Shown: positions 12,926-47,501 of the stretch, piece after piece | Layout: each line of letters starts with the position of its first letter | Position numbering within the stretch: position 1 is the first letter of the stretch | Origin: an uncultured Collinsella sp. | Lineage (GTDB): Bacteria; Actinomycetota; Coriobacteriia; Coriobacteriales; Coriobacteriaceae | NCBI GenBank assembly: GCA_900542635.1 | Contig: UQOJ01000005.1 | Span: 176 to 64,175 of the forward strand | DNA: 64,000 nucleotides | Reading direction: 5' to 3' | The notes under the pieces: model-generated | What the model was told of the DNA's origin: nothing | Seen by the model: the letters and a program-made list of their open reading frames with translations, nothing else | The model's database searches: none | Translations under genes and position numbers: made by a program

Positions 12926-12964
12926 TCGACCTGACGAGTTGAACGTCACATCTATATGACTCGG

Positions 12965-13004
12965 AAAGACCGGGTCCGCGACTTCGCGGGCTCGGTCTTT
13001 TTTT
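12965..13004 (+). terminator. intrinsic terminator after cstA
   Basis: AAAGACCGGGTCCGCG-ACTT-CGCGGGCTCGGTCTTT (two G-U pairs) followed by a T-run. Confidence 0.8.
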
Positions 13005-13028
13005 CATGCAAAAGCGGGTGACGCTCGA

Positions 13029-15290
13029 GTGTTCTCACAGATGTTTTGCATGGATAAGGGCGCGCGTTGTACCATATGGACGTATATGTGTGCATATGAA
13101 AGGGACCCCGTGGCCAAGACGGTATATTCCGATAACCAAAATAATGTCGATGCCCTGGCTGAGCGTCTGAGCAGCCAGACGTCGCTTTCTGCCGAGCGTG
13201 CCAAGCTGGTTGCCTACGACCTGCTTTGCCGCAAGGCGCTCAAGATTAAGTCGAGTGCGCTGGCGCAAATTTTTCGCTCCGTCGATAAGGAATGCGACAC
13301 AAAGGCGATGCGCGATGAGCTTATCGCGGCAAATATCGTGACCAAGATCGAGGGTAGCGGCATTAACGGGCGCCCGGCGTTCTATACCATCAATGCCGAG
13401 ATCCGCGATGTCCAGGAGCAGCCTGTCGAGTCCGTCGAAGATTTTGTCGTCGAGGATTCCGCTGACGTACCTGCTGTGGAAGAAGCTGCTCCGCGTGAGC
13501 ATGTCGATACCGATGAGTTGCTCGATGAGAACGTCGTGCGTGCCTTTACGGCCAAGGCAGGACGCGGCGGTTTTGGCGGGGGTGGCAAGCGCGATGCGCA
13601 GCGCCGCGCCCAGCAGGAGCGCTTCCGTCGCGCCGTTGCTCAAAAGGGTGAGACGGATGCTGAGACCGTCGAGGAAAAGTCCGTTGGGATGCGGGAGCCG
13701 ACTCGCACTCAAGAGCATGCTGAGATCCAGGAGCCCAAGCGTCGCCGCGGTGCCCACTTTAAGGCTGAGCAGCGAGGTATTGCATGCGAGGTCCAGGATT
13801 CCGTCGAGGCTGCTGACGCGTCCGATGAACCGGTCAAGAAGGCTCCGGGTTCATGCCGTCCCGGACGTGGTTTTGCGGGGCGCGCGTATCCCTTAAGGCA
13901 TCAGGAGAAGAGCGAACCGGCTTCGACCACTCAGGACGAGAAGGCCGAGAAGGCCGTTGAGCCGGCGGCTCGCGAACAGAAGCCTGCTGAGCCGCAGCTT
14001 GAGGTTGATGCCGAGGCCAAGGGCCAGCAGCCTACTGATGAGCAGGCGGAGCAGGGCACGTCGAGCAAGCCTCGCCGCCGTCGCCATCGTGGGGGCCGCA
14101 GTTCCCATGCCGAGACTGCAGCCGAGAAGACCACGCCGCAGGACGAGGATGCGAAGGTCGAGGTTTCTTCGGGGCAGCCTAAGCGCCAGCCGGCGAAGGA
14201 GAGCAAGTCCAATCGTCCGCAGAAGCAGGCGCCTATGCCGAAGCGCGAGCGCAATTCCCAAGGCGATTCTAAGCGCAAGTCTCAGAAGAAGCCGGAGTCT
14301 GCCGCAGCAGATACTGCTGCCCAGCAGCCCAAGTCGGCAGTCCACGGCGAGGTCTCGGCGTTTGCCCTTGCCCGCGTTTTAGGCAGGCAGCTGCTCAAAG
14401 TTGTCCCTACGCCTACGGCGCTCTCTAAGATCAAGGAGCAGCAGACACAGATCGTAAAGGTCGAGGGCAAGGACGGCAAAAAGGCTCCGCAGCGCACTCA
14501 GCACAACGAGATGTCCAACCGCAAGATTGCCGAGGAAATCGCAATCATCCAGGCTTGGATCGAGCAGAACCGAGGTGCCGATACGCCGGTTGCCTCGCGC
14601 CGCCAGCGTGCCTACCAGATCTTTAATGACGAGAAGGCTTTTGACGGCAAGCACGGTGAGCGCCTGATCAGGCGTATGACCGAAAAGGGCATCAGCATGC
14701 AGGCGATCAAGGTCGCCCCCAATCGTCCCGTGCACTTTACGGGCTTCTTTACGCTGGGCGCCGACAAGCCGTTCATTATGGTCGAGAACCTGGACACCTA
14801 CGACGAGATCGTCAAGCTGCTGCGTGGCCGCAAGCACGCCAAGCTCTTTGGCATCAAAGTGGGCGGCGTGATTTTTGGCGGCGGTTGCAAGGCGAGCGTC
14901 TCGCATGCCCTGGACGATTATCTGGCCGAGATTGGCTATCGCTTTAACTACGTCTACTACGTGGGCGACATCGACCGCGAGGGTGCGCGCATCGTCGAGC
15001 AGGCTCGCAATGCCAATGTGGTTGAGATTCGCCTACATGCCGGCATGTACCGCGCCATGCTCGCCGAGCATAAGCGCCGCGTGAAGGCCGGCGGCGAGTG
15101 CGAGCCCGCGGCTGCCAACCAGGGCGTGCCGCAGAACCTGGCAGCGACGATCAAGGATCTGCCCATGGTTACGCGCGTGCAGTTCCGCAACGTGCTACGT
15201 GAAGGCGGGCGCATTCCGCAGGAGATTCTGATGACCGCCGACTATCGGGATGGCGACTCGGGAAGCTTCGACCGCATGCTCAACAACTAG
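13029..15290 (+). CDS. orphan protein: N-terminal globular region, ~300-aa K/E/P/Q/R-rich low-complexity linker, C-terminal Toprim/DUF2220 (JetD-C/MksG-like) domain
   Basis: C-terminal motifs FIMVENLDTYDE and YYVGDIDREGARIV, preceded by ASRRQRAYQIFNDEKAFD, recalled as resembling JetD C-terminal domains. Start uncertain; a GTG at ~13109 after AAAGGGA is an alternative. Confidence 0.55.
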   Translation: MFSQMFCMDKGARCTIWTYMCAYERDPVAKTVYSDNQNNVDALAERLSSQTSLSAERAKLVAYDLLCRKALKIKSSALAQIFRSVDKECDTKAMRDELIAANIVTKIEGSGINGRPAFYTINAEIRDVQEQPVESVEDFVVEDSADVPAVEEAAPREHVDTDELLDENVVRAFTAKAGRGGFGGGGKRDAQRRAQQERFRRAVAQKGETDAETVEEKSVGMREPTRTQEHAEIQEPKRRRGAHFKAEQRGIACEVQDSVEAADASDEPVKKAPGSCRPGRGFAGRAYPLRHQEKSEPASTTQDEKAEKAVEPAAREQKPAEPQLEVDAEAKGQQPTDEQAEQGTSSKPRRRRHRGGRSSHAETAAEKTTPQDEDAKVEVSSGQPKRQPAKESKSNRPQKQAPMPKRERNSQGDSKRKSQKKPESAAADTAAQQPKSAVHGEVSAFALARVLGRQLLKVVPTPTALSKIKEQQTQIVKVEGKDGKKAPQRTQHNEMSNRKIAEEIAIIQAWIEQNRGADTPVASRRQRAYQIFNDEKAFDGKHGERLIRRMTEKGISMQAIKVAPNRPVHFTGFFTLGADKPFIMVENLDTYDEIVKLLRGRKHAKLFGIKVGGVIFGGGCKASVSHALDDYLAEIGYRFNYVYYVGDIDREGARIVEQARNANVVEIRLHAGMYRAMLAEHKRRVKAGGECEPAAANQGVPQNLAATIKDLPMVTRVQFRNVLREGGRIPQEILMTADYRDGDSGSFDRMLNN

Positions 15291-34577: not shown

Positions 34578-35606
34578 ATGGCCAACAAAGTCACCCTCAA
34601 GCAGATCGCCCAGGAGGTGGGGCTTTCCCCCTCGTCGGTCTCGCTTGTGCTCAATAATCGGCCCTGTCGCATCTCGGAAGAAAACCGCAAGCTCATCAAA
34701 GAGGTCGCGGCGCGCAACCACTATGTTCCCAACCAGATCGCGCGCAGCCTGGTCATGCGCGAGTCGCGCACCCTGGGCCTTATCGTCCCTAACATCGAGA
34801 GCCGCTTTTTTGCCTCGCTCGCCGGTAGCCTGGAAAAGCGCTGCCGCGAGGACGGCTATGCGCTCTTCATTACCAGCTCGGGCGGAAGCGCCGATGACGA
34901 TCTGGAGCTGCTGCGCCAGCTGGTGACGCGCGGCGTTGATGGCGTCTTCCTGGTCGTAGGCGACGAGTTCTCCGACGACCGCGCCCTGCGCGAAGAAGTC
35001 AGCCATCTGCCTATCCCTGCCGTGATGGTCGACCGTGCCATTGAGGGGCTCGAGTGCGACAAGGTGATGTTCGACCACGAGATGGGTGGCTACATGGCCA
35101 CCCGCTATCTGGTCGAGCGGGGCCATCGTCGCATTGCTTGCTTGGTTAACGCGCGCCGTTCCAATACGGGGCGTAAGCGACTTGCCGGCTATGAGCGCGC
35201 GCTGCGCGAGGTTGGCCTGCCTATCGACGCACGTTTGGAGTTTGAGAGTGAGTACTACATTCCGAGCGCATACGAGGCTTCGGAGGCGGTGCTCGCAACC
35301 GACGCCACCGCCGTGTTCGCAAGTTCGGACAACATTGCCCTCGGTTTGCTCAAGCGCTTGCACGAGATGGGGAAGAGCATCCCGGGCGATATCTCGGTGG
35401 TGAGCTATGACAACTCGGCGGCCGACGTTCTCTTTGAGCCGGCGCTGACCGCCATTGAGCAGGATCCTGGTGTCCTCGCGGAGCATGCTTTTGGCTGCAT
35501 GTCCAAGCGTCTTGCCGGTAGGGGCGGTAGGCGTGCCGAAGAGGTCGTTCTGGAGCCGGCGCTTATCGTAAAGGGCAGCGTGCTCGAACTTACTAAACAC
35601 AACTAA
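34578..35606 (+). CDS. LacI-family transcriptional regulator
   Basis: N-terminal HTH VTLKQIAQEVGLSPSSVSLVLNN plus a periplasmic-binding-protein-like core. Confidence 0.88.
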   Translation: MANKVTLKQIAQEVGLSPSSVSLVLNNRPCRISEENRKLIKEVAARNHYVPNQIARSLVMRESRTLGLIVPNIESRFFASLAGSLEKRCREDGYALFITSSGGSADDDLELLRQLVTRGVDGVFLVVGDEFSDDRALREEVSHLPIPAVMVDRAIEGLECDKVMFDHEMGGYMATRYLVERGHRRIACLVNARRSNTGRKRLAGYERALREVGLPIDARLEFESEYYIPSAYEASEAVLATDATAVFASSDNIALGLLKRLHEMGKSIPGDISVVSYDNSAADVLFEPALTAIEQDPGVLAEHAFGCMSKRLAGRGGRRAEEVVLEPALIVKGSVLELTKHN

Positions 35607-35705
35607 ACACGTTTACCAATTTGCAGAGACCGAATGTGGAGCACCTGTGACAGACAGTGCCGCAGGTGAATGTCGCGTTTTGCTAATCCATATTGCAAAT
35701 CAGGA

Positions 35706-35744
35706 TGATAAAACGTTTTTTCACCACGATAAAACGTTTTAGCA
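35706..35744. promoter_or_regulatory. two candidate LacI-type operators in the xfp promoter
   Basis: TGATAAAACGTTTTTTCA and CGATAAAACGTTTTAGCA, each centred on the palindrome AAAACGTTTT (CG-centred, as in LacI/CcpA-type sites). A TATACT -10-like hexamer follows at 35747. Confidence 0.5.
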
Positions 35745-35810
35745 AATATACTAGTCCCAACGAAAGGTTGCCGTATCGGAGGGTGACCGCGCAGCGAAGG
35801 GACATAAACA

Positions 35811-38339
35811 ATGGCTAAAACACTGGGTACGCCGTGGCAAAAACTGGGACATGAGGTTCCGGCTTCCGAGCTCGAGGGCGTCGACCTGTATTGGCGCGCA
35901 TCGAACTATCTGTCCGTCGGTCAGATCTACCTTCGCTCCAACCCGCTGATGCGCGCTGACTTTGTCGACGAGAAGACCGGCGAGGTGCGCGACTTTGGTC
36001 GTCCGGACGTTAAGCATCGCCTGGTTGGTCACTGGGGCACCACGCCTGGCATCAACTTCCTGTTCGGACACGTCAACCGTCTCATCGCCGACCACAACCA
36101 GAACGCCATTTTCTTGATGGGCCCGGGCCACGGTGGCCCTGCCGGCACCGCCCAGTCGCTGCTCGATGGCACCTACCGCGAGATCCGCCCCGACATCACC
36201 AATGACGAGGCCGGCCTGCAGAAGTTCTTCCGTCAGTTCTCCTACCCCGGCGGCATTCCGAGCCACTTTGCGCCCGAGACGCCCGGCTCCATCCATGAGG
36301 GCGGCGAGCTCGGCTACACGCTCAGCCACGCCTACGGTGCCGTCATGGACAACCCGAGCCTGCTGGCCGTGGCCGTGGTGGGCGACGGCGAGTCCGAGAC
36401 CGGTCCGCTCGCGACTTCTTGGCAGTCAAACAAGCTCGTGAACCCGGCAACCGACGGTATCGTCCTGCCGATCCTGCACCTCAACGGCTACAAGATCGCC
36501 AACCCCACCATCCTTGCCCGCGTTTCCGATGAGGAGCTCACCAAGTTCTTTGAGGGTATGGGCTATAAGCCGCACTTCTTTGTCGCCGGCTTTGACGACG
36601 AGAGCCACGCAAGCATCCACGAGCGCTTTGCCGCCCTGTTTGAGCAGGTCTTTGACGAGATTTGCGACATCAAGGCCGCCGCGCAGGCCCAGGCCGCCGC
36701 GGGCGAGACCGTGGTTCGCCCGGCCTACCCCATGATCGTGTTCCGCACGCCCAAGGGTTGGACCTGCCCCAAGCAGATCGACGGCAAGAAGACCGAGGAC
36801 TCCTGGCGCGCCCATCAGGTGCCGCTGGCGAGCGCCAAGGACACCCACGAGCACTTCCGCGTGCTGCGCGAGTGGCTGCGTTCCTACAAGCCCGAGGAGC
36901 TCTTTACGCCCGAGGGCCAGGTGCGCCCCGAGGTGACGGCCTTTATGCCGACCGGCGAGCTGCGCATCGGCGCCAACCCCAACGCAAACGGCGGCAAGGT
37001 TCGTCGCGAGCTCGAGCTGCCCGATATTCACGCCCACGAGATTCCCGTTGCCGAAAAGGGTCACGGCTGGGGCTCCACCGAGGCCGCCCGCGTCTTTGGC
37101 GAGTACACTGCCGACGTTCTGGCTAAGAACATGGACGATTTCCGCATCTTCGGTCCCGACGAGACCGCGTCCAACCGTCTGCAGGCTGCCTACAAGGTGA
37201 CCAAGAAGCAGTGGGACGCCGGCTTCTACGAGGACGAGGCCAACGACGAGCTGCTCGCCGGTTCCGGCAAGGTTGTCGAGCAGCTGTCCGAGCATCAGTG
37301 CGAGGGCTTCCTCGAGGCCTACGTGCTCACCGGCCGCTCCGGCGTGTGGAGCTCTTATGAGAGTTTTGTCCATGTGGTCGACTCCATGGTCAACCAGCAC
37401 TGCAAGTGGCTCGAGGCTACCAAGCGCGAGATTCCGTGGCGTGCCCCCATCAGCGGTCTCAACATTTTGCTGTCGAGCCATGTCTGGCGTCAGGACCACA
37501 ACGGCTTCTCTCATCAGGATCCCGGCTTTATCGACCTGCTGCTCAACAAGGCCAATGAAACGCACATCGTGAACGCCTACTATCCGGCCGACGCCAACAT
37601 GGCTCTCGCCGTGGCCGAGCGCGTCTACCAGTCCACCGACTGCGTCAACGCCATCTTCTGTGGCAAGCAGCCCGCCCCGACCTTCCAGACGGTCGACGAG
37701 GCCAAGGCAGAGCTCGCCGAGGGTGTTGCGACCTGGGAGTGGGCATCGACCGCCAGCTCGCTCGCCGAGGCCGACGTCGTGGTCGCCACGTGCGGCGACG
37801 TGCCGACGCTCGAGGCCCTGGCTGCAACCGACATGCTGCGCGAGCTGGGCATCAAGGTGTGGTTCGTCAACGTGGTCGATCTGCTCAAGATTCAGAACGT
37901 CTGCGAGAACGACCAGGCCATCAGCGATGAGCGCTGGGCTGAGCTGTTTGGCCGCGGCGAGAAGCCCGTGCTCTTTGCATTCCACGCCTACGCCGGCACG
38001 ATTCGCCGTCTGATCTGGAACCGCCCCGGCCACGATGCCTTCCGCGTCCACGGCTACGAGGAGAAGGGCTCCACGACCACGCCGTTCGACATGCTGCGCC
38101 TGAATAACATGGACCGCTGGGCCCTGGCCGCCGACGTGTTGCGCATGGTCGACGCCGATAAGTTTGCCGAGCAGATTGATGAGTGGGAGGCCTTCCGCAC
38201 CGAGGCCTTTGAGTTCGCGTGCGACGAGGGCTTCGATCACCCGGCCTTTACCGACTGGGTCTGGCCCGACGCCGCAGCCGCGACTGCTGCCGACGGCGCG
38301 CTTTCCGCAACGCAGCTAACTGCCGGCGACAACGAGTAG
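35811..38339 (+). CDS. xfp: xylulose-5-phosphate/fructose-6-phosphate phosphoketolase
   Basis: [35 protein letters not shown]; 842 aa. Confidence 0.93.
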
Positions 38340-38366
38340 GTAGGCATCCGGGACGGTCTCGCGCTG

Positions 38367-38451
38367 GGGCCTGCTCCGGGCGGGTTGCCTTGCTCCGGGA
38401 AGTGGGCTTCGCGAACTTCCCAGAGCAAGGCAACCCGCCCGGAGCAGGCCC
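38367..38451. repeat. type B long hairpin, copy 1
   Basis: ~36-bp arms (1 mismatch), GGCCTGCTCCGGGCGGGTTGCCTTGCTCCGGGAAGT / ACTTCCCAGAGCAAGGCAACCCGCCCGGAGCAGGCC. Loop GGGCTTCGCGA. Confidence 0.85.
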
Positions 38452-38563
38452 TCTCGACCGTTTCGATATGCGGGGGCTGATTCTTTTTTATGTAATGGGG
38501 ACCTTGCTTACGCTGCTCTGGAAGCCGTGCATCTAACTATGGTCAGCCAAGATTACATTGCCG

Positions 38564-38638
38564 GGGCCGGGGAGGCATGCTTTGTTTTGAGAAGTTCGCG
38601 GAGCCCACTTCTCAAAACAAAGCATGCCTCCCCGGCCC
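38564..38638. repeat. type B long hairpin, copy 2 (loop inverted relative to copy 1)
   Basis: 32-bp perfect arms GGGCCGGGGAGGCATGCTTTGTTTTGAGAAGT / ACTTCTCAAAACAAAGCATGCCTCCCCGGCCC. Loop TCGCGGAGCCC is the reverse complement of GGGCTCCGCGA. Confidence 0.85.
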
Positions 38639-38759
38639 TCGTCCGTGAACTTTTCCGCTGGGCGAGTCATAGACGCCGTGCGCCGATAGGGTAAGGCGGC
38701 GGCTTGAAATTGGTGCTATATTCGGCTTGAGTTGTTTAATGCTAGTACGGGAGGCTGAT

Positions 38760-39251
38760 ATGGGGCTGTTCAAGAAGAAAAACCCGCAGGATGCCTTTGA
38801 TCCCGATGTGTTTACCATCACGGATACGATTTTGGACCCACCGCGGTTTACGTTTTTGCCGGCTATCTACCAGGATGCCACGCGCCGCAAGTGGGCCGTG
38901 CATCAGCGCGGCGGCGAGCCGAAGATTTTTGACTATGCGGACGTGCTGCAGTGCGAGATTGTCGAGACCGGAAATCCCGAGGATGTGCCGGAGGTTAGCA
39001 AGCGCGAACTAGCTCAGCAGATTTTGATTAATCCAGCTCAGGCTACCAAAAACAACGCTGCCAAGCGTAATATGTGCCTTGGTATGGGTGTCATCGTTGT
39101 CGTGCAAACCGGCAAGGATGAGATTTCGAAGCTTGAGATTCCGGTGACCGCGGGCGAAGTCAAGCGAGACTCCGGCCTATATCGGTCGTATCGGAACGTT
39201 GCGGAGCAGATCAAAGAAGCCTTCGACGCCATGGGGCGTCCGGAGCAATGA
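38760..39251 (+). CDS. hypothetical protein
   Basis: ORF with SD GGGAGG before the ATG at 38760; no family recognised. Confidence 0.5.
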   Translation: MGLFKKKNPQDAFDPDVFTITDTILDPPRFTFLPAIYQDATRRKWAVHQRGGEPKIFDYADVLQCEIVETGNPEDVPEVSKRELAQQILINPAQATKNNAAKRNMCLGMGVIVVVQTGKDEISKLEIPVTAGEVKRDSGLYRSYRNVAEQIKEAFDAMGRPEQ

Positions 39252-39286
39252 TTCCTGCAGCATCAAGCGGTTGAGGAGTCTTGCCC

Positions 39287-40054
39287 ATGTCGAGTGAACC
39301 ATATGCGATTCCGCCCAAAGATCGCGCCTTTGAGGGCATTCTTTGGTATATCAAACATTATGACCTGCAGAGTGGCGACCGGCTGTCCGCCGAGCGTGTG
39401 CTCTGTGAAGAGCTGGGCGTGTCGCGCACGGCGTTGCGTGCTGCGATCACGCGCCTTATTTCGTGCGGAACTTTGGAAAGCCGCCGCGGTTCGGGCACCT
39501 ATGTGTGTCCTCCCAAACCGCTGAACATCTTTCAGGAAACATGGAACTATACGCAGGCGGTGGAGAGGGTTGGCTCAAAGTCGACCGCACGCCTGGTTTG
39601 GTCCAAGGTCGTGTATGCCGATATCGATCTGGCCCAAAAAGCCCAGATTGACCTGGGCATGCCGCTCTTCTGCATTCGGCGCGTGCGTGTGGTCAACGGT
39701 TCTCCGGCATCGATCGAGACGGCTTACGTCAATCTGTCTTTGTGCCCCTCGCTTCCCGATCATGATTTTGAGCAGGAGAGCCTCTACGACGTTTTGCTCA
39801 AAGAGGGGAATGTCCATGTGGCGCACGGCAAGGAGCATATTTCCATCAGCCGTCTGAACGCCGACGAGGCCAAGTTACTGGGCGCTCAGGAGGGCACGCC
39901 GGTGTTTTACAAGGCTTCGCACGAGCGCGACGAGACCGATGGCTTTGTCGAGTATTGCAAGTCCGTGATTCTGCCGACCAAGTATCGTTTTGCCGATAAC
40001 GGCGAGGCAGACGGCGTTGCGACGAAGGTGGGTGTCGAATGGCTGATGCAGTAG
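39287..40054 (+). CDS. GntR/HutC-family transcriptional regulator (FrlR-like), first of two
   Basis: wHTH LSAERVLCEELGVSRTALRAAI plus a UTRA-like C-terminus. Confidence 0.82.
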   Translation: MSSEPYAIPPKDRAFEGILWYIKHYDLQSGDRLSAERVLCEELGVSRTALRAAITRLISCGTLESRRGSGTYVCPPKPLNIFQETWNYTQAVERVGSKSTARLVWSKVVYADIDLAQKAQIDLGMPLFCIRRVRVVNGSPASIETAYVNLSLCPSLPDHDFEQESLYDVLLKEGNVHVAHGKEHISISRLNADEAKLLGAQEGTPVFYKASHERDETDGFVEYCKSVILPTKYRFADNGEADGVATKVGVEWLMQ

Positions 40055-40752
40055 AAGACTTGCCGGTTTACAAGCAAATTCGCCGCTGCATTGCGGAGCG
40101 AATCGAGCGCGGCGACTACCCGACGGGCTCGATGATTCCGTCCGAAAACGAGCTGGCCGAGGAGTTTGGCACGACGCGCCTGACAATCCGAAGCGCCATG
40201 GACGAGCTGGTCAAAAGTGGCCAGATTCGTCGCGTGCAGGGCAAAGGCGCCTTTGTGGGACACAAGTGGTTTGACGAGCACGAACGCAAGGGCGGCTTCC
40301 GTCAGTCGGTTCTGGCGTCGGGCGCGACGCCGTCGGTGCGCATCCTGGCGCGCTCCAAACGCTACGCCGGCCCGTATTACGCCGACCTGTTTGGCATCGC
40401 CGAGGACGATCTGCTTTACTCGGTGCGCCGTCTCAACTGCATTGATGGTGAGCCCGTATCGATCGAGATGACGCTGATTCCGTGTCCGCTGTTTCCGGGC
40501 ATCGAAGACGTGGACATTTCGGTCTTCAGCCTGTTTGAGACCTATGACATGTTGGGGCGCAAGCCGGACAAGTCGATTGAGAAACTCGATATTGAAGCGC
40601 TGGGCGCACGCGATGCGAGTTTGCTCAATCTTGAGCCGGGCGATCTGGCGCTCGTACTGGAATGCCTGACCTATGACTCGAGTGGGCAGGCGATTGAGCA
40701 TGCCAAGTCTTTTAACCGCGGCGATGCCGGCGGATATACCTACAACTACTAG
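40039..40752 (+). CDS. GntR/HutC-family transcriptional regulator (FrlR-like), second of two
   Basis: wHTH IPSENELAEEFGTTRLTIRSAM plus UTRA. Overlaps the upstream regulator gene by 16 nt. Confidence 0.85.
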   Translation: MADAVEDLPVYKQIRRCIAERIERGDYPTGSMIPSENELAEEFGTTRLTIRSAMDELVKSGQIRRVQGKGAFVGHKWFDEHERKGGFRQSVLASGATPSVRILARSKRYAGPYYADLFGIAEDDLLYSVRRLNCIDGEPVSIEMTLIPCPLFPGIEDVDISVFSLFETYDMLGRKPDKSIEKLDIEALGARDASLLNLEPGDLALVLECLTYDSSGQAIEHAKSFNRGDAGGYTYNY

Positions 40753-40758
40753 CGTCTA

Positions 40759-40793
40759 GAGCGTCCCTGCGCACGGCGGGGGCGCTCGTTTTT
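40759..40793 (+). terminator. intrinsic terminator after the regulator pair
   Basis: GAGCGTCCC-10 nt-GGGGCGCTC followed by GTTTTT. Confidence 0.7.
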
Positions 40794-40869
40794 ACGGATA
40801 TATGTCGCTTGACCGATGAGCGGCAAAAACTGACCGTCTACCGAGAGGGGAGGACGAAATCAAAAAATC

Positions 40870-40912
40870 GGTATTAAAAACGGCTAACCTGTAATCGTTC
40901 ACTGGTATTAAG
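40870..40912. promoter_or_regulatory. GGTATTAA repeat motifs upstream of SIS copy 1 (candidate operator)
   Basis: CGGTATTAAAAA and CTGGTATTAAGA, 32 nt apart. Related motifs occur at 43184-43226 and 46084-46128. Confidence 0.45.
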
Positions 40913-41027
40913 AACCTTTGAATTGTTGAGCTTGGGGCCAAGATGTCCACAAGGTTAAGCGGTGCGACGGGGCGGCAAGCCCGTCCATTCCGTGCGACAA
41001 TTCAAACTGCTCGTGAAAGGAGCGGGA

Positions 41028-42089
41028 ATGAAGGAGACCGAGAAGATCGAGATCATGCACTTCGACCAGGAGGGCTACCTCGAGGACGGCAGGAACGTCT
41101 ACGAGGCCGGCAAGAAGATGACCGCCCTGGCCGACCGCGTGCACGAGGAGGGCTACGACGCCGTCTTCCTGATGGGCGTCGGCGGCACCTGGGACGAGTT
41201 CATGCAGCTCGAGTACCTCATGAACAAGTTCGGCGACCGCGACCTCGAGGTCTACCTGATCCACGCCGCCGAGTGGAACGTCATGGGCCACAAGCGCATG
41301 ACCGACAGGTCCGTCGTGCTGACCGCCTCCGAGTCCGGCACCACCCCCGAGGTGCTCGAGGCCGTCGGCAAGATGAGGGAGATGGGCGTGCGCGTCTTCG
41401 CCATGACCAACCCCGAGGGCAAGATCGGGCAGGCCGTGGGCGCCGAGAACTGCGTCATGATGGCCTCCGACCACGGCGCCGGCGGCTGCGAGAAGGGCTA
41501 CTACCTCGCCGACTGCTTCGGCCTGCGCCTGCTCAACCGCCGCGGCTGCTTCCCCAAGTTCGACCTGTTCATCGAGCAGACGAAGGACGTCTGGAAGGAC
41601 ATGCTCGACATCCGCAAGCGCTTCGAGCCGCGCGCCGAGGAGCTCGCCAGGAAGTACGCGCTGGCCGACTACACCATGTTCATCGGCTCGGGCGCGCTGT
41701 GGGGCGAGACCATCCTGTACTCCATGTGCCTGCTCGAGGAGATGCAGTGGAAGCGCATCCGCCACATCACCTCGCACGACTTCTTCCACGGCACGCTCGA
41801 GCTGCTCGAGCCCGGCGTCCCGGTGTTCCTGTTCATGGGAGAGGACGAGTGCCGCGCCCTCGACGAGCGCGTCCGCGCCTTCCTCACCAGCGGCGTGACC
41901 GGCGACGAGGACTACGTCATCATCGACACCGCCGAGTACGCGATCCCGGGCCTGGACGACGACTTCCGCGTCATCGTGTCGCCGTGGATCCTGTCCGTGC
42001 TGACCACCGACCGCCTCGCGCGCAACTACGAGCTGGTCACCAAGCACAACCTCAAGTACCGCCGCTACTACCACCAGTTCGACTACTAA
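41028..42089 (+). CDS. SIS-domain sugar-phosphate isomerase/deglycase (FrlB/GfrE/AgaS-like), copy 1
   Basis: Two SIS-type segments (VFLMGVGGTWDE..., TASESGTTPEV, MFIGSGALWGE). ATG at 41028 follows AAAGGAGCGGGA. Identical to 46178-47239. Confidence 0.8.
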   Translation: MKETEKIEIMHFDQEGYLEDGRNVYEAGKKMTALADRVHEEGYDAVFLMGVGGTWDEFMQLEYLMNKFGDRDLEVYLIHAAEWNVMGHKRMTDRSVVLTASESGTTPEVLEAVGKMREMGVRVFAMTNPEGKIGQAVGAENCVMMASDHGAGGCEKGYYLADCFGLRLLNRRGCFPKFDLFIEQTKDVWKDMLDIRKRFEPRAEELARKYALADYTMFIGSGALWGETILYSMCLLEEMQWKRIRHITSHDFFHGTLELLEPGVPVFLFMGEDECRALDERVRAFLTSGVTGDEDYVIIDTAEYAIPGLDDDFRVIVSPWILSVLTTDRLARNYELVTKHNLKYRRYYHQFDY

Positions 42090-42110
42090 TTTCATTTGGG
42101 GGAAACCGCA

Positions 42111-42530
42111 ATGAGGCAATACATCTTCGCCAGCCACGCGCATTTTGCGACCGGCATCAAGGAGAGCACCGAGCTGCTCTCGGGCGCGCGCGATAACGTC
42201 CACGACCTGTCGATGTTTGTCGACGGCCGCACCGACGTCGCCGAGGAGGCCGCCAAGCTCCTGGCGACCTTCGACCCCGCCGACGACGTAATCGTGTGCA
42301 CCGACCTGTTTGGCGGCAGCGTCAACAACGAGTTCACCAAGATCGTCCAGACGCGCCCCAACACCTACCTGGTTGCCAACATGAATCTGCCGCTGCTGAT
42401 CCAGCTGCTCTTTTCGGACCAGGAGGCTCCCGCCGATCAGGTTATCCGCGAGATCCTCGCGGCTGACGACACGCGCGTCAAGTTTGTCAACGACCTGCTG
42501 ACCGATGCGGATGACGAGGAAGAGTTCTAG
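42111..42530 (+). CDS. PTS mannose-family EIIA
   Basis: YIFASHAHFATGIKES (His-containing N-terminus of EIIA-Man type). ATG at 42111 follows GGGGGAAACCGCA. Confidence 0.8.
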   Translation: MRQYIFASHAHFATGIKESTELLSGARDNVHDLSMFVDGRTDVAEEAAKLLATFDPADDVIVCTDLFGGSVNNEFTKIVQTRPNTYLVANMNLPLLIQLLFSDQEAPADQVIREILAADDTRVKFVNDLLTDADDEEEF

Positions 42531-42587
42531 TCACCGCCTGCTATTAATGGGGCCGGGTTTCCGGCATGAGACCTTTGGGGGTCAATC

Positions 42588-43070
42588 ATGATTCAACTGC
42601 TTCGCGTCGACCATCGTCTGCTTCATGGCCAGGTGGCCGTCTCTTGGGTCCAGGGCTTGGGCTCTGACTGCATCTTCTGCGTTGGCGACAAGGTTGCCAA
42701 CGATCCCGTCTGGAAGACTACGCTCAAGATGGGAAAGCCGGCCAACGTCAAGCTCGTCATCAAGGACATGGAGCACGCCATCGAGGCCATCAACTCCGGT
42801 GTTACCGATAAGTACAAGATGATCATCTGCGTCGCCAGCATCGCCGAGGCCAAGCAGCTTGTCGACGGTTGCCCGCAGATCACCTCCATCAACCTGGGCA
42901 ACACCAAGTCCAAGGACGAGCAGCGTCCCGATGCCCGTAAGATCTCCCGCCAGATCTTTGTGACTGCTGCCGAGGAAGAGGACATTCGCGAGCTCGTCGG
43001 CCGCGGTGTCGAGGTCGAGATTCGCGCTCTGGCCGACGACCCCAAGGTCGATGCCCTAAGCGCCCTCTAA
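42588..43070 (+). CDS. PTS mannose/sorbose-family EIIB
   Basis: LLRVDHRLLHGQV phosphorylation-site motif. Confidence 0.88.
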   Translation: MIQLLRVDHRLLHGQVAVSWVQGLGSDCIFCVGDKVANDPVWKTTLKMGKPANVKLVIKDMEHAIEAINSGVTDKYKMIICVASIAEAKQLVDGCPQITSINLGNTKSKDEQRPDARKISRQIFVTAAEEEDIRELVGRGVEVEIRALADDPKVDALSAL

Positions 43071-43183
43071 TTGGGAACCACGGGCGGCGCGCACGGCGCC
43101 GCCCCTATTCGTGGGCGTACCGGATAAACGCTTTACCCGTTACCCCCATCTACCGTTCACCGGGAGTACACGCCCGTTGAGCG

Positions 43184-43226
43184 ATTGGTATTAAATAGTT
43201 TTCTCATGACTATATAATTGGTATCA
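43184..43226. promoter_or_regulatory. ATTGGTATTAAATA / ATAATTGGTATCA motif pair upstream of EIIC (candidate operator)
   Basis: The same pair recurs, with nearly the same spacing, at 46084-46128. Confidence 0.5.
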
Positions 43227-43364
43227 AATCATTTGCACCGGTTTAGGTGTTAACAGCACACCGGTACAAGCTGGATCTGTCTAGGCGATTGTCGGTATGG
43301 AAAAGGGCGCGCTGACAAGTCGGGAATCGCCGCACGGATCCAAGAGGGATCAAAGGGAGGAACA

Positions 43365-44138
43365 ATGCTTGTTCAAGCGATCCTCATCGGACTTATCGCT
43401 GCCTTCGGTAAGCTCGATTATCAGCTCGGTACGCTCTATGCGTTCCGCCCGATCGTTCTGTGCCCGCTCGTCGGCATAGTCCTCGGGGACCCGCAGTCCG
43501 GCCTCGCCATCGGTGCGAGCCTCGAGCTGCTCTTCATGGGTTCAATCTCCATCGGCGCTTACGTGCCGCCCGATGAGTGTATTGGCGGTGTGCTCGCCTG
43601 CGCCTTCGCTATTCAGCTGGGTCAGAGCACCGAGGCCGCTATCGCGCTCGCGATGCCCATCGCCACTCTGTGCCTGGCCATTAAGAACGTCGTCAACGCC
43701 GGTATGCCCCTTCTGGTCGACCGTGCCGACGTCTTTGCCAGCAAGGGTAACCTCAAGGGTATCTACGCTATGCACTGGATTATCGGTCTCGTGATTGTCG
43801 TCCTGGCCTTTATCCTGTGCTCGGTCTCCTTCTATCTGGGTGCCGACGCCGTTCAGGGCCTGCTCGACTTCATCCCGACGTTCGTCCTCGATGGCTTTGG
43901 CGTCGCAGCCAACATCCTGCCTGCCATGGGCTTCGCCATGCTCGGCCGTCTGGTGCTTACCAAGCAGCTCGTGCCGTTCTACTTCCTGGGCTTCCTGCTG
44001 TGCTCCTATGCCAACGTGCCCGTCCTCGGCGTCGCCCTGATCGCAATCATCATCGGCATCGACAAGTACGACCTGCTGGGCCTTGGTGGCGCCCAGTCCC
44101 AGCTTTCTGTGGAAGGGGATGAGGACGATGACTTCTAA
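43365..44138 (+). CDS. PTS mannose-family EIIC
   Basis: Polytopic 257 aa; N-terminus LVQAILIGLIAAFGKLD is typical of IIC-Man. Confidence 0.85.
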   Translation: MLVQAILIGLIAAFGKLDYQLGTLYAFRPIVLCPLVGIVLGDPQSGLAIGASLELLFMGSISIGAYVPPDECIGGVLACAFAIQLGQSTEAAIALAMPIATLCLAIKNVVNAGMPLLVDRADVFASKGNLKGIYAMHWIIGLVIVVLAFILCSVSFYLGADAVQGLLDFIPTFVLDGFGVAANILPAMGFAMLGRLVLTKQLVPFYFLGFLLCSYANVPVLGVALIAIIIGIDKYDLLGLGGAQSQLSVEGDEDDDF

Positions 44139-44952
44139 TTCCGAGAACCAGATTACTCGCTCCGACCTCATTAAGAGCGCCGTGAACACCGGCGCCCTGG
44201 GCATGGAATTCTCCTGGACCTACTACAAGCAGATGAACATTGCCTTCTGCCTGATGGTCGCCAACATGCTCAAGAAGATCTATGCCGGCCGTCCCGATGA
44301 TTACGCCGAGGCCTTGCACCGTCACAGCGCATTCTTCAACATCACCCCGCAGCTCGCTCCCTTCGTGGGCGGCATCGCGATGGCCATGGAAGAAAAGGTC
44401 GCTCGTGGCGAGGTTGAGCCCGAGAGCGTCAACGACATCAAGGCCGCCCTCATGGGTCCGCTTTCCGGCCTGGGTGACTCCTTCTTCCTGTCCACCCTGC
44501 GCGTCGTCGCCGCTGCCGTGGGCATCAGCCTGTGCCAGGCCGGCAACGTCTTTGGCCCCATCGCCTTCCTGCTCGTCTACAACATCCCGGCGTTCCTGAT
44601 TCGTATCTTTGGCGCTATCAAGGGTTATGAGCTAGGCATTGGCTTCCTCGACGAGGCTCAGAAGACCGGCCTGATGCAAAAGATCATGGCCTGCGTCGGC
44701 ATTGTCGGCGTCATGGTCGTCGGCGCCATGAGCAAGGACATGTTCTGGGCTTCGTTGCCCATCGCCATTGGTCAGGGCGACTCCGCCCAGACTCTCCAGG
44801 ACATCCTGGACGGTATCATGCCCGGTATGCTCGGTATGGCCGCCTTCTGGCTCTACTACTGGCTGCTCTCCAAGAAGATCAACCCGATGGTCCTGATCCT
44901 CTGCACCATGGTCGTGGGCATCATCGGCGCTTACTTTGGCGTGCTTGCCTAA
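44128..44952 (+). CDS. PTS mannose-family EIID
   Basis: ITRSDLIKSAVNTGALGMEFSWTYYKQMNIAFCLMV...FFNITPQLAPFVGGI is typical of IID. Start chosen by SD spacing; overlaps the EIIC end. Confidence 0.85.
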   Translation: MTSNSENQITRSDLIKSAVNTGALGMEFSWTYYKQMNIAFCLMVANMLKKIYAGRPDDYAEALHRHSAFFNITPQLAPFVGGIAMAMEEKVARGEVEPESVNDIKAALMGPLSGLGDSFFLSTLRVVAAAVGISLCQAGNVFGPIAFLLVYNIPAFLIRIFGAIKGYELGIGFLDEAQKTGLMQKIMACVGIVGVMVVGAMSKDMFWASLPIAIGQGDSAQTLQDILDGIMPGMLGMAAFWLYYWLLSKKINPMVLILCTMVVGIIGAYFGVLA

Positions 44953-45064
44953 TATGTTCGAATCGCGCTTCCATCGCGTCTAACGGTTGCGTCGATCTTT
45001 GGGGGGCTTGTCGCATCTGCGGCGGCCCCCTGTTTTTTAAAACTCCGTACGAAAGGGGAGGGCT

Positions 45065-45910
45065 ATGGTCGTACCCGAGCTTTCGCTCATGAACATCAAC
45101 CATCGTTACTACAGCATCGAGACGTTTTTTAAGGCTGCAGGTGAGGCCGGCTATCGCAATATCGAGCTGTGGACCGGCTCGATGCACCTGTATGTGGATT
45201 GCCATGAGCACGATTCGGTGGATAAGATTCGCGATCTTGCCGCCCAATACGGTATCAAGATCGTGTGCGTGTGCCCCGAGCAGAACAACCCCAAGCCGTG
45301 GAACGTCGCGGTGCGCGGTGAGGCGGGCCAAAAACGCATCCTCTCGTACTTTAAGAATGTGATCGACGTTGCCGTTGAGTTGGGCGTGCCGCAGATTCTG
45401 GTGACGAGTGGTTGGGCCTATCTGGACGAGCCGGCTGAGGACGCCTGGGCCCGCAGCGTTGCCATGCTGCGCTCGGTGTGCGACTACGCCGATACGTGCG
45501 GCATTCGCGTCGCGCTCGAGGCCCTGCAGCCGTCGGAGTCCGTGTTGGTCAACACCGCACAGGATGTCGCGCGCATCCTCGAGGCGGTCGATCGTCCCAA
45601 CCTGAAGGCCTGTATCGACTTTGGCGCCATGGAAGTTGCCGGCGACACGATCGACGGCTACTTTGAGGTTTTGGGCGACAAGATCGTTCACACCCACTTT
45701 GTAGATGTGGGCGGCGGCACGACGCATCTTGCCTGGGGCGACGGCGAGCGTGATATGCGTGCCGACCTCGAGGCACTCATGCGTCACGGCTATACGGGCT
45801 ATGTCTCGGCCGAGACGTGTGATGGCCGCTACTATCAGGATCCGTCCAAGGCGACGACTCAGGTTATCGAGATGTATCGCCGTGTGACAGCGGAGATGGA
45901 AGCCGAATAA
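45065..45910 (+). CDS. xylose-isomerase-like TIM-barrel sugar (phosphate) epimerase/isomerase (FrlC-like)
   Basis: AP-endonuclease-2/XI-like TIM-barrel pattern (...IELW..., ALEALQP, HTHFVD). The FrlC analogy is inferred from context. Confidence 0.7.
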   Translation: MVVPELSLMNINHRYYSIETFFKAAGEAGYRNIELWTGSMHLYVDCHEHDSVDKIRDLAAQYGIKIVCVCPEQNNPKPWNVAVRGEAGQKRILSYFKNVIDVAVELGVPQILVTSGWAYLDEPAEDAWARSVAMLRSVCDYADTCGIRVALEALQPSESVLVNTAQDVARILEAVDRPNLKACIDFGAMEVAGDTIDGYFEVLGDKIVHTHFVDVGGGTTHLAWGDGERDMRADLEALMRHGYTGYVSAETCDGRYYQDPSKATTQVIEMYRRVTAEMEAE

Positions 45911-46083
45911 CTAAACTGCGCGGTTGCGCCGGAAACGCTTGGGCGGGTCTGGCGCAACGCTTTTATAGCTGGCGAGTTGTGGGGAACCCGTTGGCAGTAG
46001 CGCTCGAAATAGACAACTATTGGCGTTGTAATACCACTCGGGCGAGGAAACCGACCGTTCGCCGCAAATCTCCGTGAGTTTGG

Positions 46084-46128
46084 ATTGGTATTAAATAACA
46101 AGCAATCGTATGGCTATAATTGGTATCA
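46084..46128. promoter_or_regulatory. ATTGGTATTAAATA / ATAATTGGTATCA motif pair upstream of SIS copy 2 (candidate operator)
   Basis: Near-identical to 43184-43226. An inverted GTAATACCA lies at 46028-46036. Confidence 0.5.
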
Positions 46129-46177
46129 GCAAGAAGCGCGATGTATAGAATTGCGCACATGTGATGGGAGGACACAC

Positions 46178-47239
46178 ATGAAGGAGACCGAGAAGATCGA
46201 GATCATGCACTTCGACCAGGAGGGCTACCTCGAGGACGGCAGGAACGTCTACGAGGCCGGCAAGAAGATGACCGCCCTGGCCGACCGCGTGCACGAGGAG
46301 GGCTACGACGCCGTCTTCCTGATGGGCGTCGGCGGCACCTGGGACGAGTTCATGCAGCTCGAGTACCTCATGAACAAGTTCGGCGACCGCGACCTCGAGG
46401 TCTACCTGATCCACGCCGCCGAGTGGAACGTCATGGGCCACAAGCGCATGACCGACAGGTCCGTCGTGCTGACCGCCTCCGAGTCCGGCACCACCCCCGA
46501 GGTGCTCGAGGCCGTCGGCAAGATGAGGGAGATGGGCGTGCGCGTCTTCGCCATGACCAACCCCGAGGGCAAGATCGGGCAGGCCGTGGGCGCCGAGAAC
46601 TGCGTCATGATGGCCTCCGACCACGGCGCCGGCGGCTGCGAGAAGGGCTACTACCTCGCCGACTGCTTCGGCCTGCGCCTGCTCAACCGCCGCGGCTGCT
46701 TCCCCAAGTTCGACCTGTTCATCGAGCAGACGAAGGACGTCTGGAAGGACATGCTCGACATCCGCAAGCGCTTCGAGCCGCGCGCCGAGGAGCTCGCCAG
46801 GAAGTACGCGCTGGCCGACTACACCATGTTCATCGGCTCGGGCGCGCTGTGGGGCGAGACCATCCTGTACTCCATGTGCCTGCTCGAGGAGATGCAGTGG
46901 AAGCGCATCCGCCACATCACCTCGCACGACTTCTTCCACGGCACGCTCGAGCTGCTCGAGCCCGGCGTCCCGGTGTTCCTGTTCATGGGAGAGGACGAGT
47001 GCCGCGCCCTCGACGAGCGCGTCCGCGCCTTCCTCACCAGCGGCGTGACCGGCGACGAGGACTACGTCATCATCGACACCGCCGAGTACGCGATCCCGGG
47101 CCTGGACGACGACTTCCGCGTCATCGTGTCGCCGTGGATCCTGTCCGTGCTGACCACCGACCGCCTCGCGCGCAACTACGAGCTGGTCACCAAGCACAAC
47201 CTCAAGTACCGCCGCTACTACCACCAGTTCGACTACTAA
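46178..47239 (+). CDS. SIS-domain sugar-phosphate isomerase/deglycase (FrlB/GfrE/AgaS-like), copy 2
   Basis: Identical to 41028-42089 from ATG to TAA. SD GGGAGG lies upstream. Confidence 0.8.
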   Translation: MKETEKIEIMHFDQEGYLEDGRNVYEAGKKMTALADRVHEEGYDAVFLMGVGGTWDEFMQLEYLMNKFGDRDLEVYLIHAAEWNVMGHKRMTDRSVVLTASESGTTPEVLEAVGKMREMGVRVFAMTNPEGKIGQAVGAENCVMMASDHGAGGCEKGYYLADCFGLRLLNRRGCFPKFDLFIEQTKDVWKDMLDIRKRFEPRAEELARKYALADYTMFIGSGALWGETILYSMCLLEEMQWKRIRHITSHDFFHGTLELLEPGVPVFLFMGEDECRALDERVRAFLTSGVTGDEDYVIIDTAEYAIPGLDDDFRVIVSPWILSVLTTDRLARNYELVTKHNLKYRRYYHQFDY

Positions 47240-47290
47240 GAGCTGGTCACGGGTCCGATATCTTGGCTGGTTGATATCTCGATCCTGCAC

Positions 47291-47323
47291 AAGGGCGTCC
47301 GCAATTGCGCGGGTGCCCTTTTT
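47291..47323 (+). terminator. imperfect hairpin + T-run after SIS copy 2
   Basis: AAGGGC...GCAATTGC...GCCCTT followed by TTTTG. Confidence 0.6.
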
Positions 47324-47501
47324 GCGTTGTGACAAGAGACTGCTGCTAACCGCTTGCCCTATGTTTCCAAATGAATACGGTGTGAGCCGAGGAGGACGAT
47401 TCTCCCCGCAAACACTCTAGTATGCTAAAGTACCCAGAAGACCGGCGGAGCTATGCCGGTCTTCTGCTCTATATGAAACACAGCATGAGGAGGCTCACCA
47501 G

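Follow-up and report, generated by a model that had tools for sequence, protein, structure and literature searches.

How can two genes in one bacterial chromosome agree in every base from start codon to stop codon when the sequences around them do not match, and why does nearly every one of their codons end in G or C? These questions are raised by a 64,000-nt stretch of DNA from an uncultured Collinsella sp. (contig UQOJ01000005.1, positions 176 to 64,175; hereafter the window), which by its sequence is placed in the Collinsella aerofaciens group. A SIS-domain gene occurs in it twice, at 41028-42089 and 46178-47239, on either side of the genes of a mannose-family phosphotransferase system (PTS) and a sugar epimerase. 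Comparison with related loci indicated that the twin open reading frames (ORFs) are very probably old paralogues of the FrlB/GfrF type that were homogenised by gene conversion, and that the same repeats also delete the PTS block. In the following, type A is the allele of the window, and type B is a sister allele at the same chromosomal site, carried by many C. aerofaciens strains including ATCC 25986-like isolates.

Identity of the two copies and its limits

The two copies were identical at 1062 of 1062 bases. Identity began at the ATG, which was preceded by A in copy 1 and by C in copy 2, and ended at the TAA, which was followed by TTTCATT in copy 1 and by GAGCTGG in copy 2. The 30-base flanks of the copies matched at 7-9 of 30 positions, which is the level of chance. 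An earlier reading of this DNA, made from the letters alone (the sequence-only reading), had described two exact copies with these limits, and the alignment agreed with it. The shared antisense and alternative-frame ORFs that it also listed were a trivial outcome, because they follow from the identity of the DNA and from a G+C content of third codon positions (GC3) near 100%, which removes the stop codons in other frames. Both copies were overlapped by shadow ORFs of 414-431 amino acids that contained no stop, at 40908-42203 and 46091-47335 on the minus strand and at 40943-42196 on the plus strand; these result from the GC3 near 100% and could mislead programs that call genes.

The sequence-only reading had objected that gene conversion takes no account of where an ORF starts and stops. 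This did not apply to the present locus, where the ORF limits were kept and the flanks had diverged anciently and were without homology. The first 30 and the last ~24 bases of the ORF were invariant even among unconverted paralogues: in those of type B, differences set in at nt 31-33 and mostly ceased at 1038, in one case at 1056. The residual differences between type-A copies near the ORF ends were located at positions 6, 18, 24 and 42 and at 954-999. Identity stops at the ATG and the TAA because the flanks share no homology and the ORF ends are invariant, and no special mechanism would be required for the ORF-exact limits. On the upstream side these flanks are two distinct putative promoter/operator regions, and on the downstream side they are EIIA in one case and a terminator-like hairpin in the other; the invariant ends form the outermost homology.

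Probable gene conversion between the copies

The two-copy layout, with a spacing of 5149-5150 bp, was found in 26 independent assemblies, including contigs of 2.1 and 2.4 Mb and cultured isolates. There were no differences between the two copies of the same genome in 24 of these 26, and between genomes the copies differed at 6.8 sites on average and at 29 at most. At the 46 variable sites there were 99 cases in which both copies had the minor allele and 5 in which only one of them had it. Both copies of L004, for example, had 813A>C and 891C>G, and three changes were shared by the two copies of L010.

The type-B strains and Collinsella intestinalis had two paralogues at the same positions, which differed from each other at 16-113 nt. 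The 60 nt upstream of copy 2 could be aligned between types A and B, and orthologous EIIA genes started after copy 1 too. On the basis of these alignments the duplication is judged to be older than the split of types A and B, and the type-B strains show that the ancestral state consisted of two tandem PTS operons, each headed by a deglycase gene. At 91 paralogue-diagnostic sites, nine type-B genomes were differing patchworks of copy-1 and copy-2 states. Blocks with zero differences alternated with divergent blocks along the type-B copies in a pattern that varied among genomes, with the differences found only in the last 100 nt in some genomes, only at both ends in others, and over the whole gene in one. 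The cassette genes of the type-A locus L051 were at a synonymous divergence (dS) of 0.17-0.44 from the window and yet its two copies were identical, which means that type A has been kept homogenised for a long time. Type A would be the fully homogenised end state that arises from repeated intrachromosomal gene conversion. Very recent conversion between two paralogues had been one of four options offered by the sequence-only reading, and it was the one matched by the shared strain-specific alleles, the mosaics and the orthology of the flanks.

Loss and possible spread of the PTS block

A single hybrid copy was present in 15 assemblies, flanked upstream by the sequence belonging to copy 1 and downstream by that belonging to copy 2. 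These assemblies lacked the PTS and epimerase genes, which is the repeat-driven loss that had been predicted from the sequence. Contigs of 1.2 and 2.3 Mb were among the 15. Reciprocal recombination between the 1062-bp direct repeats would delete a 5150-bp unit, consisting of one copy, the PTS genes and the epimerase gene, and would leave the hybrid copy behind.

The block of 41028-47239 had a dS of 0.005-0.04 among genomes, compared with 0.15-0.36 for lacI, hisZG and hisD, and it was near-identical among genomes whose neighbouring core genes differed by 5-8%. The divergence between strains climbed sharply just past copy 2; the values beyond 47.3 kb were inflated by a few loci with other genes there, and the BLAST-based identity was 91-96%. 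These patterns suggest that the whole block spread recently among lineages by recombination, or that a locus-specific sweep occurred. The recent acquisition proposed earlier is tenable for the whole block, which is near-identical across genomes with 5-8% core divergence, and not for the SIS gene alone.

Several points weigh against, or do not yet support, conversion and deletion as described above. Conversion was read from patterns, the two-copy state of this particular genome was read from its assembly, and the one-copy contigs from short-read metagenomes could partly be mis-joins, although megabase contigs (L001, L005) were in the one-copy state too.

Alternative origins of the twin genes

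Exact repeats and an optimised-looking codon table are also what an assembly artefact or an engineered, codon-optimised insert would show, and both had been considered in the sequence-only reading. The same structure was, however, present in 26 assemblies that were independent of each other and came from various studies, isolates and assembly programs, some of them megabase contigs with long-read-assembler-style names, and strain-specific single-nucleotide polymorphisms occurred in both copies. Synonymous codon pairs were mixed in the gene, unlike a back-translation with one codon per residue. The chance of such an artefact or insert is negligible. The exact SIS protein was indexed in 5843 blocks of a public collection. 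Among short-read assemblies, L046 and L078 had a contig of exactly 1062 nt, and the contigs of L011, L015, L020, L048 and L071 broke at the ORF edge, as is expected when an ORF-exact repeat passes through a de Bruijn graph assembly. L078 is a type-B isolate, and its 1062-nt contig suggests that full-length homogenisation took place there independently. A recent ORF-exact duplication or insertion is the more serious competitor. A one-copy ancestor would have gained the 5150-bp unit (the PTS genes and a second SIS gene) through a circle or fragment homologous only in the SIS gene, and the copies would be young. It fits with this that one-copy strains exist, that the low-diversity block is bounded by the two SIS copies, and that the dS of the block, far below that of the core flanks, points to recent spread with the SIS gene as a portable homology arm. 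The diverged paralogues that stand in place in type B and C. intestinalis, together with the orthologous region upstream of copy 2, argue that the two-copy state predates the split, and the diverged type-A lineages L051, L042 and L050, with their identical copies, need continuing homogenisation. A young duplication is improbable for these reasons. Integration may still have been a route by which the block moved between strains, which is compatible with the conversion explanation.

Horizontal acquisition from a very G+C-rich organism, with insertion at two places, was suggested by the GC3 of 0.997, far outside the local distribution. The source-named entries among the best 120 sequence matches all came from Collinsella or other Coriobacteriia (most of these matches were unnamed), and the nearest genome loci were all from Collinsella, isolates as well as metagenome-assembled genomes. 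Thermophilibacter (67% G+C), the closest richer outgroup examined, had a GC3 of 0.94 in this gene, which was 78% identical. In addition, the G+C contents of the first and second codon positions (GC1, GC2) were unchanged, the codons matched native preferences, and the neighbouring cassette genes had ordinary GC3. A foreign source is thus very improbable, and the composition that had been called foreign to the locus consists of the genome's own preferred codons, with nearest relatives that are all Collinsella. The earlier suggestion of a cassette-like gene replacement did not hold either, as no mobile-element gene was present within 38.7-47.3 kb and comparison of the locus with phages gave no match. 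All ORFs of that interval coded for regulators or for SIS, PTS or epimerase proteins, except one 174-aa ORF without a Pfam or NCBIfam match.

A single match to a record labelled as a plasmid was found, to NZ_OY725717.1 (L094; 850754-868891), a 900-kb record named plasmid 6 of C. aerofaciens TSDC17.2-1.1. It carried murB, the his operon and a type-B locus, and seems to be chromosomal sequence deposited under a plasmid label. In Collinsella provencensis, L092 contained a type-A-like copy at 4512-5573, with 95.4% DNA identity to the window and a GC3 of 0.969 among genes of GC3 ~0.78; the second SIS copy of this species was 79% identical, with a GC3 of 0.77. The type-A-like copy may be the saturated gene, passed from one species to another.

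Third codon positions of the SIS gene

In the 354 SIS codons, the third position was C in 227, G in 125, A in two (one GGA and the TAA stop) and T in none, so that GC3 was 352/353 (0.997) and the earlier count of one A-ending and zero T-ending sense codons was correct. The other genes of the window had GC3 values of 0.71-0.91. The neighbours were richer in A/T-ending codons, as had been noticed, with values of 0.86 for EIIA, 0.80 for EIIB, 0.78 for EIIC, 0.83 for EIID, 0.75 for the epimerase and 0.88 for enolase. T occupied 11.5% of the third positions in the highest-GC3 genes of the window, and at that rate the probability of zero T in 353 codons is ~2e-19. The rarity of such genes, on which the sequence-only reading depended, was found on checking: among ~700 distinct long ORFs of all fetched Collinsella loci, only the SIS gene and the type-B EIID gene exceeded a GC3 of 0.96.

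Each of the codons preferred in the SIS gene also rose in frequency from the average genes to the high-GC3 genes of the window, enolase included, and GC1 and GC2 were unchanged. Synonymous pairs were mixed (CTC 16 and CTG 17; GTC 15 and GTG 9). The gene tolerated four rare AGG codons, all of which were recent Lys(AAG)-to-Arg replacements. On the S/W axis, which sets codons ending in G/C against those ending in A/T, the log-odds were 5.39 for the SIS gene, compared with 1.26 (all genes), 1.76 (the high-bias set) and 1.95 (enolase). On the C/G axis, within four-fold boxes, the log-odds in favour of C were 1.14, 0.63, 1.03 and 1.00, in the same order. The shift factors were 8.2 on the S/W axis and 1.3 on the C/G axis, and the type-B EIID gene behaved likewise. 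Six genes of the window with high GC3, enolase among them, served as stand-ins for highly expressed genes, and five of the six were picked by GC3 rank, which makes the comparison partly circular. The extreme GC3 is a native codon bias at saturation on the A/T-versus-G/C axis only, and on the C-versus-G axis the gene stands at the level of enolase.

Biased conversion or codon selection

In type B it was another gene that reached saturation. The EIIC-EIID pair was tandemly duplicated there, for example at 12118-13723 and 14910-16515 of L067, and also in L063, L072, L073, L080 and L057. The EIID copies were 99.6-100% identical, with a GC3 of 0.98-0.99 and 0-1 differences within genomes against 10.2 between genomes, and their minor alleles were found in both copies rather than in one at a ratio of 25:1. 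The EIIC copies beside them were 78-92% identical and had a GC3 of 0.80-0.86. The identity tract began ~200 nt inside EIIC and ended at the EIID stop. L057 had three identical EIID copies; L081 and L084 had one, and the spacing between their SIS genes was shorter by exactly one 2792-bp unit. Where EIID is a single copy, its GC3 was 0.83 (the window) and 0.88 (C. intestinalis). Likewise, the single-copy orthologues of the SIS gene in Thermophilibacter and Atopobium sp., which stand in the same operon context, and the non-converting copies of Collinsella tanakaei (70% identical) and C. provencensis (copy b) had the GC3 of their neighbours. The two alleles were thus reciprocal: in type A the SIS gene was saturated and EIID was ordinary, and in type B EIID was saturated and the SIS gene only partly so.

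These observations can be read in two ways. It is quite possible, if somewhat less than evenly supported, that conversion in Collinsella is strongly G/C-biased and has saturated GC3 (0.98-1.00) twice, in the type-A deglycase and in type-B EIID, while single-copy or non-converting versions stayed ordinary. For the near-total loss of A/T-ending codons itself, an origin from the G/C bias of conversion, possibly helped by codon selection, is about evenly balanced in our judgement. Of the 24 synonymous diagnostic sites in the type-B conversion outcomes, 18 had the G/C allele as the prevailing one (p=0.02). Alternatively, the SIS gene could be very highly expressed and under translational selection; the frozen synonymous sites would then sustain conversion, with codon bias as the cause and homogenisation as the consequence. 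This main rival is rather unlikely on the present evidence, although a good deal speaks for it. The codons of the SIS gene are exactly those for which the highest-GC3 genes of the window, enolase among them, are enriched, and against L051 its dS was 0.051 when that of its neighbours was 0.17-0.44 at equal nonsynonymous divergence (0.015), that is, 4-8 times below them, as in highly expressed genes. Against type B, dS was 0.24-0.39 for the SIS gene and 0.44-1.0 for the PTS genes. The G/C allele won significantly at synonymous sites only. A high ratio of deglycase to transporter would also be useful if the phosphorylated intermediate is harmful, as we infer from the FraB literature (PMC9609667).

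On the other side, a single axis of codon selection should shift S/W and C/G alike, and the observed factors were 8.2 and 1.3. Single-copy orthologues in the same operon context showed no GC3 excess, and four rare AGG codons were tolerated. The IIC and IID proteins of the mannose family form one complex, so that EIID and EIIC are expected to be expressed similarly; the GC3 of type-B EIID was nevertheless 0.986, against 0.85 for EIIC, 0.73-0.77 for EIIA and EIIB, and 0.83 for type-A EIID. The reciprocal pattern of EIID and SIS therefore favours GC-biased conversion over expression-driven codon selection, without proving it. A G/C bias of conversion in turn is opposed, or not yet supported, by a number of results. 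The G/C allele prevailed at 16 and lost at 11 of the 27 nonsynonymous diagnostic sites of type B (p=0.44), the nonsynonymous changes on the type-A branch were 8 from A/T to G/C and 6 in the opposite direction, GC3 within type B did not follow how many differences the copies now have, and conserved protein segments had raised GC3 even in the single-copy EIIC of type A. The conversion tracts contained no non-coding DNA. A mixture of G/C-biased conversion and codon selection is possible. The relation between GC3 and paralogue identity within the type-B EIIC genes (0.95-1.0 in identical blocks and 0.6-0.86 in the divergent middle) was set aside as a test, because a weaker version of the same profile in single-copy type-A EIIC shows that it is confounded by protein conservation.

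Predicted function of the deglycase

The SIS protein aligned over residues 10-353 with Salmonella FrlB (PDB 8GLR; E=1.4e-73), with identity at about half of the residues as read from the alignment, and it matched 2A3N with E=8.8e-74 and the Bacillus subtilis protein 3EUA with E=5e-25. Like 8GLR and 2A3N, it had two SIS-like subdomains, a full-length alignment and a conserved catalytic Glu and His. The catalytic residues E224 and H240 of Salmonella FrlB corresponded to E238 and H254, which were invariant in 16 homologues. In Salmonella FrlB these two residues come from different subunits of the dimer (PMC10285752). The score against the NCBIfam equivalog of E. coli-type FrlB (PRK11382) was 61.6 bits with a cutoff of 430, so the protein belongs to the GfrF/8GLR branch and not to the E. 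coli FrlB branch; the Pfam SIS model gave 19.4 bits, under its cutoff of 25. By homology, the gene is assigned as a fructoselysine-6-phosphate deglycase of the FrlB/GfrF type, with a predicted activity. The locus would serve the use of Amadori compounds in Collinsella: the mannose-family PTS would make a phosphorylated fructoselysine-type compound, which the deglycase would split into hexose-6-phosphate and lysine. Uniform copies would be favoured because the enzyme is a dimer with an active site built from both subunits.

The gfrABCDEF system of Salmonella imports and phosphorylates fructoselysine and glucoselysine by a mannose-family PTS, and two deglycases cleave the products (Miller et al. 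2015 via PMC12675984, 10.1101/2024.06.27.600934). The Collinsella locus resembles it in having a complete mannose-family PTS (EIIA, EIIB, EIIC and EIID; 42111-44952) beside two SIS-type deglycases. In Salmonella, however, GfrE and GfrF are divergent, the former acting on glucoselysine-6-phosphate and the latter on fructoselysine-6-phosphate, and are both encoded after the PTS genes, whereas the Collinsella deglycases bracket the PTS genes and are identical, and therefore cannot differ in specificity. The Collinsella locus also differs from gfr by its FrlC-like epimerase and adjacent GntR/UTRA regulators. The two divergent deglycases at equivalent positions to which the sequence-only reading had pointed have a counterpart within the genus, since the sister-allele Collinsella and C. 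intestinalis carry divergent pairs; the deglycase copies of the type-B relatives had 5-31 amino-acid differences. C. intestinalis is said in a secondary source (PMC11744835, citing Wolf 2019) to metabolise fructoselysine.

Organisation of the locus

The features of the locus are listed in Table 1. The genes are arranged in the order LacI, phosphoketolase, a 174-aa ORF, two GntR/UTRA regulators, a hairpin, SIS copy 1, EIIA-EIIB-EIIC-EIID, the FrlC-like epimerase, SIS copy 2, a second hairpin, hisZG and hisD. The limits of EIID were taken from the gene calls in locus L004. The first hairpin appears to separate the regulator genes from the transcription unit of copy 1, and the second is a probable end of the locus before hisZG. 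The order orf163-GntR-GntR-SIS was also found in Thermophilibacter, Atopobium sp. and other Collinsella, and the two regulators are the probable repressors of the locus. The epimerase scored 152 bits against the NCBIfam fructoselysine 3-epimerase, under the cutoff of 305.

Table 1. Features of the twin-deglycase locus (window coordinates)
Feature	Position	Strand	Remarks
Overlapping GntR/HutC-type regulator genes	39281-40054, 40039-40752	+	Pfam GntR and UTRA; helix-turn-helix (HTH) and UTRA domains
Terminator-like hairpin 3' of regulator genes	40759..40787	+	12-bp stem, 9 GC pairs, T run; pattern match only
CGGTATTAA / TGGTATTAA motif pair 34 nt apart, 5' of copy 1	40869..40911	+	Candidate GntR operator
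SIS copy 1, FrlB/GfrF-type fructoselysine-6-phosphate deglycase homologue	41028..42089	+	353 aa; GC3 0.997
PTS EIIA, mannose family	42111..42530	+	Pfam EIIA-man; ATG 21 nt past stop of SIS copy 1
PTS EIIB, sorbose/mannose family	42588..43070	+	Pfam PTSIIB_sorb, E=6.9e-42
TGGTATTAA / TGGTATCAA motif pair with intervening TATAAT, in 294-nt EIIB-EIIC gap	43186..43227	+	Candidate internal operator/promoter
PTS EIIC, mannose family	43365..44138	+	Pfam EII-Sor, E=4.2e-67
PTS EIID, mannose family	44128..44952	+	Single copy; GC3 0.83; Pfam EIID-AGA, E=6.8e-85
FrlC-like sugar epimerase, xylose-isomerase-like TIM barrel	45065..45910	+	Pfam AP_endonuc_2
Motif cluster with TATAAT, 5' of copy 2	46028..46131	+	Motifs at 46028 (minus strand), 46086 and 46123
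SIS copy 2, identical to copy 1	46178..47239	+	Positional orthologue of the second, divergent type-B paralogue
Terminator-like hairpin 52 nt past copy 2	47291..47320	+	12-bp stem and T run

Direct comparison of the intergenic regions of the locus revealed an operator-like motif. The motif TGGTATTAA, with at most one mismatch, had 9 matches in the window where 3.1 were expected, and 6 of the 9 lay in three intergenic regions of the locus (5' of copy 1, in the EIIB-EIIC gap and 5' of copy 2), as pairs ~34 nt apart. The arrangement GATTGGTATTAAATA-N20-CTATAATTGGTATCA was common to the EIIB-EIIC gap and the region upstream of copy 2, and a TGGTATTAA-like motif also occurred 5' of the SIS gene in other species. 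The TGGTATTAA sites are probably operators of the GntR/HutC-type regulators, and the cluster in front of copy 2 suggests that this copy has its own co-regulated promoter. Both SIS copies would thus be expressed from separate promoters carrying GntR-type operators. A scan for the sigma-70 consensus gave nothing useful 5' of either copy. An Rfam scan of the intergenic regions (E<=0.1) yielded only spurious microRNA-like matches; these fell on two long hairpins near 38.4-38.6 kb, and the locus itself had none.

Upstream of the regulators, a conserved ORF of ~163-174 aa (38727-39251) preceded the two GntR genes in the window, Thermophilibacter and Atopobium sp.; it had no Pfam or NCBIfam match. 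The phosphoketolase gene (35811-38339; 842 aa) lay within a presence/absence segment of ~2.97 kb (window 35594-38650), which the window shared with 14 of 66 related loci; in the others LacI was followed directly by the small ORF. Long hairpins at 38366-38453 and 38553-38650 closed the segment, and one of them occurred in loci without the insert too.

Comparison with known cases and significance

Concerted evolution confined to the coding sequence is established in bacteria for tufA/tufB, amoA and others, and conversion can spread optimised codons, as described in PMC6053082 (citing Lathe & Bork 2001, Kondrashov 2007). The Collinsella twins are a new case of this phenomenon. As with tuf and amoA, paralogues in different contexts are near-identical within a genome and diverge between genomes, the effect is limited to the coding sequence, and arguments of dosage or paralogue interference apply. 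They differ from tuf and amoA in that both copies lie in one catabolic locus, in direct orientation and 5 kb from each other, so that reciprocal recombination also deletes the intervening genes. The SIS gene is furthermore an accessory catabolic enzyme gene rather than a core gene, its third positions are saturated with G/C, and a second gene, EIID, behaves alike in the alternative allele.

With regard to base composition, the nearest parallels come from elsewhere. Work by Galtier in 2003, Kudla in 2004 and Lassalle in 2015 reportedly showed that GC-biased conversion raises GC3 in mammalian histone and Hsp70 families and that GC3 is linked to recombination in bacteria. Like those mammalian families, Collinsella has homogenised paralogues with a much higher GC3 than their single-copy relatives, on the A/T-versus-G/C axis; unlike them, the case is bacterial, involves just two copies and reaches a GC3 of ~100%, and the bias itself is inferred. 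The reciprocal pattern provides a compact natural test of G/C-biased conversion in bacteria, a question usually approached by genome-wide correlations, and if the bias is real, the pattern would be evidence of unusual clarity, on the scale of genes, that gene conversion in a bacterium is biased, and its reciprocal control is built in.

An ORF-exact repeat with codons that look synthetic is here natural and explained by known recombination biology, which removes a false alarm. Short-read assemblies break or collapse at the 1062-bp repeat, so that pangenome and metagenome calls of this locus are unreliable. In the organism itself, which is very common in the human gut, the presence or absence of the genes of a fructoselysine-type transporter and epimerase would depend on whether the twin genes recombine, and this polymorphism of the block bears on differences among strains in the handling of compounds from processed food.

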